A stretch of DNA of 64,000 nucleotides from Octopus sinensis (Eukaryota). Where the stretch lies: the NCBI RefSeq assembly GCF_006345805.1, contig NC_043001.1:93868001-93932000 (forward strand), written 5' to 3'. Made by a program: the position numbers and the translations under genes. Positions 3,440 through 30,481 of the stretch are shown in pieces (the first letter of the stretch is position 1; every line of letters begins with the position of its first letter). Below the pieces are notes generated by a model that was given only the letters and a program-made list of their open reading frames with translations, did no database searches and was not told where the DNA came from.

Positions 3440-3739
3440 CACCCTTTTCAAGCCTAGCCAGGCTCATGGGCCCTGTTTCCCGGTTTCTGTGGCGTTTATG
3501 TTCCCCCCAATTGGACGGGACGCTAGACCATCGCAGCGTTACTCAAGAAACAGGAAGAGAGAGTGAGAGAAAGTTGTGGAAAAAGAGTACAACAGGGGTT
3601 GCCATCCCCTGCCGGAGCCTCGTGGAGCCTTTTTAGGTGTTTTCGCTCAATAAACACACACAATGCTCGGTCTGGGAATCGAAACCGCGATCCTCCGACC
3701 GCGAGTCCACTGCCCTGACCACTGGGCCATTGCACCTCC
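3440..3739 (-). mobile_element. tRNA-derived SINE, family A, near full length
   Basis: Minus strand has A box (tggcccagtggtcagggc) and B-box-like ggtttcgattccc; body homologous to 13081-13335. Confidence 0.85.
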
Positions 3740-5444
3740 CGCTGTACGGCGTACCCTAACCGAATTCAAATAAGAGTCACTCTGTTGATTGATATGAACT
3801 CTTCTGTCAATATATTTTAAGCATCTCCATACTGTTTTTTTTTTTCGTCTATACACACTAAGGTATTCTCTGTTCTTCAGATATGCCTGTTTATATTCCA
3901 AACCTAACATCCCTCCCAACCTCCTCAGTCGCGTTGGCTCCGCATTATCATCTAACATAGTTCTCTCAACTAACATAGTTCTCTCAAGAAAATCAACCTT
4001 CGAAAATATCCTGTCATGCAAGTACTTGATTTCCTGTCAATTTGCATTTTGCAGTTGTCCGAGGGTTTTTTTCACACGGTCGATAGCCTTTGTGTGAGAG
4101 GGTTTGCGAAGATATGGGCATATATCCTCCCTATCGGCCTGGAGAGTAAACGTCGCCAAAATTGTATGTCTAGCATAATAATCACACTGTTTCGATATTT
4201 CATTGTTTCGTATTATATTAACTAGAAAATAAAACGGCTATACTTCTGACATTTGCAGTTAATGAGGAGGTTCATATCTCCTTTCAATTTATATGTATTA
4301 TTTTGACAGAATAACAGATACTGCAGGTGTAACAATAGCCAAATATTTGTATATGCAAAATATATTACCTACCGTAAAATATATATATTCATTGGCAAAT
4401 GCACCTTGTTAAGTTTTCATAAATTCTATCGATAAACATATTTATAATTTCTCAACACTGTAATTCATACTTTTAGCTTGCAACAACTACGTCTTTGTAT
4501 TGAAAGGCATCATTAAACAAATAACTAAAACTATATGTGAATAAATTTGGATTCCATATGCAACATATCAAATAGGCTTAACAAAATTCCAATTTTATAT
4601 CTGTAAATTAAATGTATGTTTGAAGATAATTTTTCACGTCAGTTTTATGAATTTTACGAAATATGTATCAGATATTTTTATGTAGCAGGAAACTCGCGTG
4701 AGCAAAATACGCTTCAAGAAGATTTCTATCATAAAATATCGGTATCCAATAGTTAGCCAGCCAATATAGCTGCAGCAAAACATAATCTAGGATAGTGAAA
4801 AACAAACGATTACTTCATTTATATGAAAGGATAAATGTCTTCCAGGTAAACAGATTGGTTTAGCTCGTGTCGAAAACCGATCAACGAAGGGTTTATGTCA
4901 AAGATGACATATAACTAAATTGATAAGTTAGATTAAGAACCAAGGTCATAGAGTATGACACCTGCCAGTTATCTTCTTAGCCGAGACGTTATTATATCAT
5001 CAACTACAAATCTACTACTATGCCTACTTTCGCTAAGAGTTTAAGTTACAGCAATATATAATAATTCGCTTGCGTCTAACTGTACTATCAATAAAAAGTA
5101 CTTCATTAGTGAGCTACTGCAGGACACTTCTAAGTAGACACTCAAATTGTTAGAAATAGCAGTCGAACCTTCCATAAATAAAATCTTTGCTTGAGTGGGC
5201 AAGACACATTCCATAATTTAATTCTAGATTTACCATGTGTGAAAAGGAGATGGTGACAGCTGGAAAGACTTTTACGGTAACTCTAATCGATAAAGTTTCA
5301 TATTGTACCAAACAAGAAAAGTAAATACAAATATACGTGTACAACGTTAAAATATATAATACTACATTACATAAGTTGCATTATAATATTGATATACAAT
5401 ATATAAATGTGTGTGTGTGTATTTGTTTGTGCATACACCGTGCG

Positions 5445-5586: not shown

Positions 5587-5995
5587 AAGGCGCAAGAGTG
5601 CTGTGTGGTAAGTAGCTTGCTAACCAACCACATGATTCCGGTTCAGTCCCACTGCATGGCATCTTGGGCAAGTGTCTTCTGCTATAGCCCGGGCCGACCA
5701 ATGCCTTGTGAGTGGATTTGGCAGACGGAAACTGAAAGAAGCCTGTCGTATATATGTATATATATATGTATGTGTGTTTGTGTATCTGTGTTTGTCCCCC
5801 TAGCATTGCTTGACAACCGATGCTGGTGTGTTTATGTCCCCGTTACTTAGCGGTTCGGCAAAAGAGACCGATAGAATAAGTACTAGGCTTACAAAAAGAA
5901 TAAGTCCTGAGGTCGAATTGCTCGATTAAAGGCGGTGCTCCATCATGGCCGCAGTCAAATGACTGAAACAAGTAAAAGAGTAATGAGTAAAGAGT
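5587..5995 (+). mobile_element. tRNA-derived SINE, family B (CORE-like), full length with internal TA/TG tract
   Basis: tRNA-like head (gctgtgtggtaag...ggttcagtccc), CORE-like cttgggcaagt, 3' end gactgaaacaagtaaaagagt; several homologous copies in window. Confidence 0.9.
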
Positions 5996-7022: not shown

Positions 7023-7371
7023 TATACATAGATGTGTGGGGTATCTAGATGCACATGCAATAAATACATGATTATGCGTGCGAGTACGAACGGTGTTTTG
7101 GTGCCTACAATATTCGTATGAGGAGAAATTGTACGTCGACAAATTGAGCGTTAGATGGTATTTTCCCACTTTATTAATGGGGATGTGTGTTTGAATCATG
7201 TTTGAAGCTTTCCATAAATTATTTGGGCCTGCACATGTAGAATCTTAACTCTAAAATGGATTGAATCTTTGCCCCGATATCGGACAATTTGTTGCAGTAA
7301 GCTTTCTTTTACTGTGGCTAAAGAAATTCTATAATATCTAACAAGAATATAAAGCGTAACATGGCGCAATT

Positions 7372-11802: not shown

Positions 11803-11977
11803 CCAAAGGCGGAGTAGATGAGACAGGGACAACTGAAGGAGGGGAATATTCTTTATGTTGCATGTCTCGTTTCTCTGTTTGTTTTTTGTTTGTTCGAAAA
11901 AAAAGTTCGTTTGTATACTTTGGTTTTTATGTTTTCGTTTCTCATTTTGTCTACGTTTTTTTTATGTCCTGTACCCA
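11798..11977. mobile_element. Unclassified ~180-bp insert inside a (TA)n tract
   Basis: Complex sequence sharply bounded by TA repeats on both sides. Confidence 0.5.
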
Positions 11978-12029
11978 TATATGCATGTATATATACATAT
12001 ATATGTAGGTATGTACATACATGTATGTA

Positions 12030-12156
12030 TATCTGCATATATTTATTATTATTCATATTATATATATAGTTATATATATATATGCATATATTTATATATT
12101 ATTCATATCATATATATATATATATATATATACATGCATATATTTATATATTATTC

Positions 12157-12193
<37 letters not shown>

Positions 12194-12325
12194 ATATATA
12201 TATATATATATTATATATATGCATATATTTATATATATTCATATTATTATATATATGCATATATTATACATTATTCATATTATTATATATTATATATATG
12301 CATATATTTATATATTATTCATATT

Positions 12326-12335
<10 letters not shown>
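12030..12335. repeat. TA-derived minisatellite, ~6 variable-length units
   Basis: tgcatatatttat(a)tattattcatat recurs near 12034, 12082, 12136, 12220, 12256, 12299. Confidence 0.8.
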
Positions 12336-12370
<35 letters not shown>

Positions 12371-12378
<8 letters not shown>

Positions 12379-13039
12379 AAAGGGCTTAGTAAAATAAATT
12401 ACTTTGCCGCATACTGAACTCATTAGAAATAGCAGCTAAAAACTTTTTTAAGGCTATTTCTAATACTTAAAGAAAATCTCTCTCATATATAGTGTTTGCT
12501 TAATTCAACTCACAAAAGTTTGGGGGTAAGGACATCGAAAAATCAAATGCTAAGGTTATTCGAGAACGTACGTTTCAAGATTAGTCTAAGATTAGTCTAA
12601 CCAAGGTGTATGTTGCACTGAGTGTCGGTATAAAATTCAGCTGATAATTGGAGATGTGCAAAGAATACATGCTTTGGCTTATAAATGCCTGTTAGTACGG
12701 CTATGATGCATGCGTATGTTTCAAGATTTGACTAATCTTGAAACGTACGTTCTCGAATAACCTTAGCATTTGATTTTTCGATGTCCTTACCCCCAAACTT
12801 TTTGTGAGTTGATTAAGCAAACACTATATATGAGAGAGATTTTCTTTAGTATTAGAATAGCCTTAAAAAAGTTTTTTAGCTGCTATTTCTAATGAGTTCA
12901 GTATGCGGCAAAGTAATTTATTTTACTAAGCCCTTTTATATAATGTAATAATTTGAATTCGCCTTGAATGGTCCCTTTGCATACTGAACACTTGGTGAAT
13001 TGATTAATAATTAATTAATTTTGCCCTCATTGTTGAAAT

Positions 13040-13040
<1 letters not shown>
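12371..13040 (+). mobile_element. Large (TA)n-embedded fold-back element with captured loop, Penelope-like remnant
   Basis: ~215-bp near-perfect arms 12371-12586 / 12730-12944, tail 12945-13040, GAAA-CGTACG-TT at 12740-12751. Confidence 0.75.
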
Positions 13041-13077
<37 letters not shown>

Positions 13078-13080
13078 TAT

Positions 13081-13335
13081 GGACTCACGGTCGAGGGATC
13101 GCGGGTTCGAATCTCAGACCGGGCGATGTGTGTGTTTATGAGCGAAACACCTAAGCTCCATGCGGCTGCAGCAGAACGTAATGGCGAACCTCTGCTGACT
13201 CTTTCGCCACAACTTTCTTTCACTCTTGCATCTTGCAGCTCACCTGCGTCGGACTGGCGTCCCGTCCATGTGGCAAACCTATACGCCAAGGAAACCGGGA
13301 AACCGGCCCTATGAGCCAGACATAGCTTGAAAAGG
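13081..13335 (+). mobile_element. SINE family A, missing A box
   Basis: B box gggttcgaatctc; body homologous to 3440-3739. Confidence 0.85.
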
Positions 13336-14074
13336 AAAAAAACAAACAAATATATGTATGCATGTAATTATGTATGTATGTATGTATAATTTTGTGTGTA
13401 TGTGTGTGCAAGAATGAGAGAGGTGGGGAGAAGGAAAATGAGCAGTATCCAGGAATAATAATGAGGAAAAATGTAAGGGAAACTTATGCATTTTGTCTTT
13501 AACAAACAGGGTATCGTAAATTTACTTAATATTTTTTCACTTTTACTTTCGTTCTCTCTGTCTGTTATAACATGCATACCCTACATACACACACACGCAC
13601 ACGCACAAATACGTGTGTGTATGTGTGTGTGTGTGTTTAAACGAAAGTAAATCCCCATTTCTGTTGACGACTGTTATGAAAATGAAAACATTCTTACGTC
13701 GAAAACATGAATAAAGAAAAGCAACTGTATAAAAATATGTAGATAGGTACATTGGTTGGTGTATTATTAGTGTTGGTGTTTATTAGGCTGGTTGCTTCGT
13801 TGGGTGGCAATTAGGATAAATAATGTGAATGCTGGTAGTATATCGTTTAGTTCTTGTTAATGTTTTGTAGAAAGCCGATCAGGTAGAAATGTCAAGAAAA
13901 TAAGTGAGCTGATAAGTAGTTAAGTAGCTGAGAAAACAATAAGAAACCAAGGTGTATGTTGCACTGAGTGTCGGTATAAAATTCAGCTGATAATTGGAGA
14001 TGTGCAAAGGAATACATGCTTTGGCTTATAAATGCCTGTTAGTACGGCTATGATGCATGCGTATGTTTGCGTGT

Positions 14075-19297: not shown

Positions 19298-20356
19298 CTA
19301 GCTGGCCCCCGTCCTTCGAAAATAAAGGCTAATTGTAGTACTTTATATATAAATGTGGATGATAAATCAAATTAATGCACTTGTCAATTCACATACTTCC
19401 CTTATACACACACGCATATACACACATATACTCACACAGAGTTGAAACGCTGTTTGATTTTTCTTTTCAGCATTGAATTTTCACAATCCCACCTGTTTGC
19501 CTTCACCCCTTCCTTCCTCATTCATATGTTGTGACAGAGAAAAGCACAAGAGTATTAGGATCTTTTCTAAAAGATGGACACGATTACCTGTGTGTGTGTT
19601 TTTGTTGTGTATGTTTGTGTGTGTGTGGTATTGTTGTGTATGTGTGTGTGTTTGTTGTGTGTGTGTGTGTTATTGTTGTGTATGTGTGTGCGTGTGTGTG
19701 TTTTTGTTGTGTATGTGTGTGTGTGTGTGTCTTTTTGTTGTGTATGTGTGCCTGTGTCGTGTATCTCTTAAATCGATGAATTTCGTCGCCCAATAAAAAT
19801 ATTAACGATATTTTTTGAACTTTGATATCGTTAATATTTTTATTGGGCGACGAAATTCATCGATTTAAGAGATACACAACACACGCACACATACACAACA
19901 AAAAAAACACACACACATACACAACAATAACACACACACATACACAACAAAAATACACACACACATACACAACAATAACACACACACACACAACAAACAC
20001 ACACACGCACACACATACAGAACAATACCACACACACACACAGGTAATCGTTCCGTAAGTCAGGGATGACATTGCAATAAACATGCAAGAAGCCTTTGAA
20101 GACAGAAAACAGAAGACAGTGATAAGGATGAATAACACGGCAGAAATGAATTGAGCTCAAAACAGAGAATACGATTGGTTAAAATTCGAAGAATTAAACT
20201 ACGTAAAAGTTACAAAATACATTTTTCTCAAAAAAACTAATTGAAATTAATGTTTTCTTTTGCCACATTCTACCAGTATACGAAGTTTCAAATTATTTAG
20301 TTAAGTAGAAAATTTTGTCTATCTTTTAGAAAAGATCCGAGTATTATTATAGTAGA
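19298..20356 (-). mobile_element. Non-autonomous Helitron-like element containing a long palindrome
   Basis: Minus strand begins A|TCTACTATAATAA and ends cgaaggacgggggccagCTAG|T; no TSD. Confidence 0.65.
19580..20051. repeat. ~470-bp imperfect palindrome
   Basis: Arms 19580-19811 / 19825-20051 with 13-nt spacer; inner ~55 bp perfect, outer part a TG/CA minisatellite closed by acgattacctg/caggtaatcgt. Confidence 0.92.
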
Positions 20357-30063: not shown

Positions 30064-30481
30064 TATTTCTTTACTGCGCACAAGGGGCTAAACACAGAAG
30101 GGACAAACAAGGACAGACAAACGGATTAAGTCAATTATATCGACCCCAGTGCTTAACTGGTACTTAAGTTATCGACCCCGAAAGGATGAAAGGCAAAGTC
30201 GACCTCGGCGAAATTTGAACTCAGAACGTAGCGGCAGACGAAATACCTATTTCTTTACTACCCTCAAGAGGCTCAACACAGAGGGGACAAACAAGGACAG
30301 ACAAACGGATTAAGTCGATTATATCGACCCCAGTGCTAAACTGGTACTTAATTTATCGACCTCGAGAGGATGAAAGGCAAAGTCGACCACGGCGGAATTT
30401 GAACTCAGAATGTAAAGACAGATGAATTACCGCTAATCAATTCATCCGGCGTGTTAACGTTTCTGCTAGCTCGCCGCCTTT
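30064..30481 (-). mobile_element. Tandem SINE family C (full + 5'-truncated unit) with 20-bp TSD
   Basis: TSD aaggacatttaactgcttct at 30044-30063 and 30482-30501. Confidence 0.92.

Follow-up and report, generated by a model that had tools for sequence, protein, structure and literature searches.

A direct copy of neighbouring host DNA at the inversion joint of a Penelope-type element insertion in an octopus genome assembly

Penelope-like insertions, retrozymes and templated patches

As described in the accessible text of the reports cited here, EN+ Penelope-like insertions combine an inverted copy, truncated at its 5' end, with a tail on one side (PMC3846280, PMC8557442), the tail being 30 to 40 bp long (PMC3846280, PMC8557442, PMC11167929), and host DNA between pLTRs is described in one of them (PMC3846280). 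A purified PLE protein cleaves both strands and extends each of them, and its reverse transcription (RT) begins at two fixed internal positions, which delimit the tail (PMC11167929). On how Penelope-like inverted repeats form, the accessible text of one report calls for an in vitro system (PMC8557442), and that of another leaves the later insertion steps unvalidated (PMC11167929). The family studied here resembles what these texts describe in its inverted copy joined head-to-head, its tail on one side between two fixed ends, its (TA)n target, its predicted hammerhead motif and its palindromic junctions, but it has no open reading frame (ORF) and its tail measures about 100 nt instead of 30 to 40. 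The accessible text of PMC3846280 contains no locally templated patch at a Penelope-like inversion joint. Our literature search for templated filler at Penelope junctions, which took in few subscription papers, likewise returned one unrelated review and is weak evidence of absence.

Animal non-LTR retrozymes, as far as the accessible text of their descriptions goes, are non-coding, low-GC tandem monomers with a type I hammerhead (PMC7229834; bioRxiv 10.64898/2026.07.22.740005). Our family also consists of non-coding, low-GC tandem monomers, each with a predicted type I hammerhead, and it shares with the axolotl retrozyme as described there a U-U base in helix II. It departs from those descriptions in monomer length (546 bp versus 150 to 450), in its inverted arrays and in the C that its youngest subfamily has instead of U4.

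The captured segment itself is best compared with two kinds of templated insertion, again as given in the accessible text. Templated insertions of human L1 elements numbered 22 in about 3,600 solo insertions, were shorter than 250 bp and were typically templated within 15 bp (bioRxiv 10.1101/2024.08.27.596794), and "templated genomic DNA insertions" are reported for L1 in cultured cells (PMC11702581). Our case likewise copies a non-element genomic segment of less than 250 bp into the insert, duplicating a nearby segment, and a further likeness is the probable twin priming, with microhomology where the inverted arms meet; it differs in the retroelement class, in a template 901 bp away and in having both proposed priming sites fixed. 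Insertions by polymerase theta are usually 3 to 10 nt long and include iterative direct and snap-back fillers (PMC9962433). The repeated realignment that yields direct repeats, snap-back inversions and a new microhomology for the final join would be the same here; the 123-nt copy is far longer, whereas the small fillers of 12 and 7 nt are near that range. On these comparisons, the capture appears to work like an L1 templated insertion or a theta-type patch and to be unusual in its host element and its distance, since the published cases use much closer templates than the 0.9 kb found here.

The element family and its two fixed ends

Used as a query, the right arm of the insertion returned 1321 candidate places, the best 40 of them at 98% or more. 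The family unit is 546 bp long, 33% GC and non-coding, and it forms tandem and head-to-head arrays, the longest with 12 units or more; its coordinates are those of one natural copy (L009), in which the true short end is 444, BLAST running past it to 447. No ORF for RT and a GIY-YIG endonuclease was found, the longest ATG ORF in the natural tandem array L020 being 94 aa. The family is a young, non-autonomous, Penelope-type element and a putative retrozyme. No autonomous partner was linked to the unit: the one abundant RT-bearing family that we compared (PF00078; 30 loci, L236-L265), which we take to be Neptune-like by its Cys motif, also has two TA-joined ends, and it matched the unit at E values of 0.3 or worse, except in one neighbouring copy. 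It gave 150 scored matches at 91% or more, its TA-joined 3' ends lie about 35 nt apart and, by eye, its short end resembles the 444 end.

The unit has the layout of a type I hammerhead: stem I, CYGATGA, stem II, GAAA, a short palindromic stem III and GUH. Across 16 variants, taken from the commonest, 94% of cells pair, versus 31 to 50% in slid controls; covariation is thin, since a two-sided change occurs just once and 79 of 500 shuffles reach an equal value. In the youngest, most abundant subfamily, CCGATGA replaces the core CTGATGA (unit 206-212, e.g. L070:5164-5215), and stem I shows a linked change from T-A through T-G to C-G. Since both arms of the copy in our window (the whole 64,000-nt stretch of DNA analysed) begin inside stem II, that copy lacks the CYGATGA half of the core and holds half a predicted ribozyme; it is an inert stub, and Rfam gave no hammerhead match on this truncated copy.

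Both outer ends of the family are fixed. Where (TA)n meets the 444 end exactly, the TA phase is broken in at least 756 cases and the transition is seamless in 58, and 444 is therefore a fixed site rather than the best available microhomology. Among the first 100 listed copies with a 444 end (contigs C1 and C2), 82 had an inversion junction, and 78 of the 82 ended at 541-546. Selection by the 545 end alone left 33 of 40 copies (6 overlapped the first sample and 1 lay at a contig start); 26 were two-armed, and in every one of these the other end was no more than 6 nt from 444. Altogether, a head-to-head inverted 5'-truncated copy was present in 129 of the 160 surveyed copies (82/100, 26/33 and 21/27), with the one-sided tail of about 100 nt lying between unit 444 and 545. 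The targets were AT-rich or (TA)n, the survey patterns having themselves selected TA at one end.

Symmetric junctions (10 nt or less) made up 34 of 108, an enrichment of about fivefold: there were 24 among 82 in the first sample, where 4.6 were expected and the highest of 20000 shuffles gave 14, and 10 among 26 in the 545-picked sample, where 2.2 were expected. With about a third of the family's junctions symmetric, the fold-back shape seen in the window is ordinary for the family. Such symmetry could come from two cDNAs that stopped together and equally from self-priming. In BLAST coordinates, the symmetric junctions (L063-L232) form two clusters, one at unit 242-267, where cleavage is predicted to follow 249, and one at unit 286-306, a near-palindrome. 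Two different loci, L069 and L161, have an identical junction. At L107, the left arm lies head-to-head with 369 nt of another, very AT-rich dispersed repeat that ends in (TA)n (L107:4022-4390; 1628 candidates in the genome); an identification of this insert as mitochondrial DNA was rejected.

The captured segment and its joint

The window is AT-rich, microsatellite-rich animal DNA in which the ORFs are low-complexity or repeat only and in which Rfam reported nothing beyond microsatellite-driven miRNA noise below gathering scores. The insert spans 12371-13043, between two TA tracts, and its arms, antisense from unit 444 to 228 and sense from 225 to 545, are separated by a joint of 140 nt (Table 1). 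In agreement with the earlier note, the motif GAAA-CGTACG-TT begins 10 nt after G12730. The element extends past the paired arms, the right arm running about 100 nt further, to 13043, which puts the capture source 901 bp from the insert end. A SINE-like repeat of very high copy number occurs at window 13081-13345 and 3443-3709 (the two 76% identical to each other), one copy sitting between the element and the capture source.

Table 1. Parts of the insertion, its flanks and the source of the captured segment (window positions)
Feature	Positions	Strand	Remarks
Left target flank, degenerate (TA)n tract	11977..12370		TRF 11977-12378
Left arm, unit 444 down to 228	12371..12586	- (antisense on +)	Short end, fixed in the family, on the outside
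Filler, T + AAGATTAGTC + T	12587..12598	+	Slipped re-copy of the left arm's last 10 nt
Host capture, 123-nt direct copy of 13945-14068	12599..12721	+	One G missing, probably a consensus error
CAAGATT, element antisense	12722..12728	+	Follows CGTATGTTT; shares TT overlap with right arm
Right arm, unit 225-444, sense	12727..12944	+	Starts within hammerhead stem II
One-sided tail of about 100 nt, unit 445-545	12945..13043	+	Family's fixed long end
Right target flank, (TA)n	13044..13080		Basis TRF
Capture source, single-copy host DNA	13945..14068	+	Unbroken contigs from three organisms' runs

The identity between loop and downstream DNA was rightly described at the outset: 12599-12721 and 13945-14068 align over 124 columns with a single gap (a G absent after 12662) and zero substitutions. 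Searching the genome with the source region, common words being skipped, returned two matches, the source and the loop, so that the loop is not a dispersed repeat. Both sides of the joint read as had been claimed. On the plus strand, the arm end AAGATTAGTC is followed by T, a second AAGATTAGTC, T, the host copy (AACC to GCGTATGTTT), CAAGATT and the sense arm, with a TT overlap. At the right side, CGTATGTTT matches the element's CGTACGTTT at 8 of 9 positions, a 9-nt microhomology with one G-T wobble. Position 14060 is the sole CGTACGTTT match, allowing up to one mismatch, within 5 kb on either side and on either strand; 0.26% of background positions match that 35-nt part of the element equally well. 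At the start of the copy, AAACCAAGG in the source equals unit 187-195, for which the background is 0.08% if the 60 nt preceding the joint are taken and 0.8% if the whole unit is. These odds for the microhomologies at the joint are post hoc. Neither exact loop junction recurs elsewhere in the genome; both are unique. Directly visible at the locus are an outer end at unit 444 and another at 545, both within (TA)n, as well as the fillers, the direct copy and the microhomologies.

The captured structure is real in the assembly and probably real in the genome. That a long-read chimera or a local mis-join placed neighbouring sequence in the hairpin is very unlikely in our judgement. Homopolymer indels in the region are at noise level and hairpins next to TA tracts assemble poorly, as such an artefact would have it, but the outer ends coincide exactly with the two ends that are fixed in the family, the micro-duplications in the fillers are ordered and show microhomology, as at other junctions, and a missed-adapter fold-back would also have inverted the flanks. 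Assembled short-read contigs cover the source in one unbroken contig each (X1, X2, X3 and X4). None of the contigs in X1, X2, X3 and X19, which can show presence only, crosses either loop junction. Assemblers of this kind often prune short branches beside a very deep repeat, and because of such pruning, and because the animal may be heterozygous or a different one, this result neither confirms nor refutes the junction.

The arms do differ by single-base indels alone, as first noted: there are five of them, in short runs, and no internal substitution. Their use as evidence of a very recent event does not hold, since in 67 pairs of neighbouring units from the family's tandem arrays there are 0.88 indel events for every 100 nt; the arm indels are probably assembly consensus errors and give no date. 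The G missing from the loop is present at the source in the short-read contigs. The youth of the event is argued instead by the zero substitutions, the arms having none against each other or against the reference unit, and by an A common to loop position 12632 and source position 13978, where two other organisms' contigs have G.

The suggestion that the event shuffled host sequence into hairpins that form double-stranded RNA (dsRNA) is not supported at this locus. In the predicted hairpin the capture makes up the loop, where it is unpaired and so would give no dsRNA; the ORFs are as described above, the event is rare (0 of 129 other junctions), and the copied host DNA is non-coding and probably without function. 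The value of the capture lies in being a footprint.

Captures at other copies and formation of the joint

To judge how common such capture is, we compared each of the 160 copies (129 inversion junctions) uniformly with itself, in stretches that reached 3.5 kb to one side of the copy and at most 6.5 kb to the opposite side. Ten loci were flagged and the window copy was recovered as a positive control; within this limited flank, distant direct capture at the inner junction was seen in 0 of the 129 other inversion junctions, and the capture in the window therefore does not generalise. This survey, of the sort proposed in the earlier note, revealed inverted copies of the adjacent flank at the inner end of two loci. 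At L202, 55 of 55 nt are copied, including the TA tract; here a strand appears to have copied back past the 444 end, crossed the TA tract, gone on into the flank for 55 nt and then rejoined the element (L202:5865-6272, reverse-complemented locus coordinates). L185 (4763-4970, oriented) is a single-arm copy, in which the free target end would have folded on the TA tract and about 67 nt of flank is inverted. If transcribed, these two inverted captures would place host sequence in the stem. A further locus, L105, resembles them and may be another element. Candidates L094 and L140, rejected as host captures, are other repeats, and L193, L219 and L221, rejected as junction captures, are tandem duplications. 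Short element-derived fillers, read by eye, are frequent (e.g. L063, L084, L120, L138 and L140). In this family, then, end patching is usual, copying of the adjacent flank is occasional and a reach of 0.9 kb is rare.

The explanation we favour, with somewhat better than even confidence, is a truncated head-to-head insertion in which the 123-nt copy was made when a cDNA end primed on the resected far end of the break and was then joined by microhomology. A Penelope-like RT/endonuclease acting in trans would cut (TA)n, and both 3' ends would prime cDNA at two fixed start sites. Because purified PLE protein starts RT at two sites that bound the tail, unit 444 and 545 may be these start sites, each arm then representing the cDNA that one side of the cut had primed. 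The left cDNA would halt at unit 228 and the right one at or beyond 225. Short extension and rounds of slippage would give the left 3' end T-AAGATTAGTC-T-AA, which would anneal to the minus strand bared by 5' resection of the right-hand end and copy at least 123 nt; entry into the host template may use AACCAAGG, found also at unit 188-195. The right cDNA end would snap back on TT-AGTC-AA and gain AATCTTGAAACGTACG, whereupon the extended ends would anneal along 9 nt, one G-T wobble included, before their flaps were trimmed and the gaps filled. We infer the direction and order of synthesis, as well as the enzyme, at this joint. The direct orientation of the copy, taken from the far side of the break, fits a resected end as template under the established geometry of end joining. 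The same letters fit a path along the minus strand, and a single product gives no order or direction; the 123 nt copied from 0.9 kb away also lie far beyond the published template ranges of theta and L1, and symmetric junctions are equally explained by self-priming or by a later break at the centre.

It had been proposed that the element's RT, or polymerase theta, switched templates onto local DNA around integration, guided by microhomology. Microhomology-guided switching onto local DNA is still the best reading, and the sequence fits both enzymes; the arms, being truncated pieces with two fixed ends, point to two joined cDNAs more than to a single element that jumps between templates. We lean slightly towards a host alternative end-joining polymerase of the theta type over the element RT. 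We consider it rather unlikely that the whole joint arose by continuous synthesis by the element RT, in which a cDNA begun at 545 would fold back, switch by way of AAAC(G/A)TACG to neighbouring DNA or to a transcript of it, take up 123 nt and then return to use its own cDNA as template as far as 444. This path unites the RT jump of the earlier note with the self-priming of Arkhipova. The fivefold excess of symmetric junctions, the self-priming proposed from palindromic PLE junctions in the accessible text of PMC3846280, the L202 strand that ran past the 444 end into flanking DNA and the standing of the source as the best local match to the snap-back product would all agree with such a path, which nevertheless leaves unexplained why the second arm ends at 444 with the TA phase broken (756 versus 58) and how the two-family joint of L107 arose, and which requires invasion of an intact duplex or a hypothetical transcript. 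Independent priming of the two ends fits L107, since there the left arm is joined to a different repeat family.

Repair of palindromes after a break at their centre is a known process, and a plain palindrome could have formed first, its centre later breaking as a hairpin or cruciform and being repaired from a local template into a stabilising spacer. This precedent and the symmetry of the window junction (228 versus 225), shared with about a third of the family, speak for that order of events. We still hold it to be quite unlikely, given that many palindromes persist with no spacer (e.g. L085, L091, L153, L189, L192, L199, L200 and L205), that the flank copying of L185 occurs with no element palindrome and that the substitution-free arms leave little time between two events.

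The joint together with the family statistics suggests that two primed ends were sealed by error-prone end joining after about 1 kb of resection, and offers a cheap genome-wide test of how the inverted repeats form. A bolder and, to our minds, unlikely version is that twin priming at the two sites is obligate for Penelope-type elements and that free cDNA ends can copy host DNA as far as 1 kb across the break, steered by brief matches with the element, AAACCAAGG at entry and CGTAyGTTT at exit. If this were true, thousands of young junctions would be a record that settles the formation of Penelope inverted repeats, and the process would be a route for local duplication of host DNA.

Copies of flanking DNA also occur outside the element. 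Beside its TA tract, L132 has a 52-nt inverted flank copy (oriented positions 3448-3499 and 5243-5294), and L104 has a 145-nt direct flank copy at 94%, the two parts 1.5 kb apart (oriented positions 5708-5852 and 7217-7361). Both are possibly other templated patches at TA breaks. Elsewhere in the window, at 19589-20042 and 30064-30414, lie an inverted pair of TG/CA-rich blocks, seen in TRF and ORF output, and a tandem pair of a 184-bp repeat.
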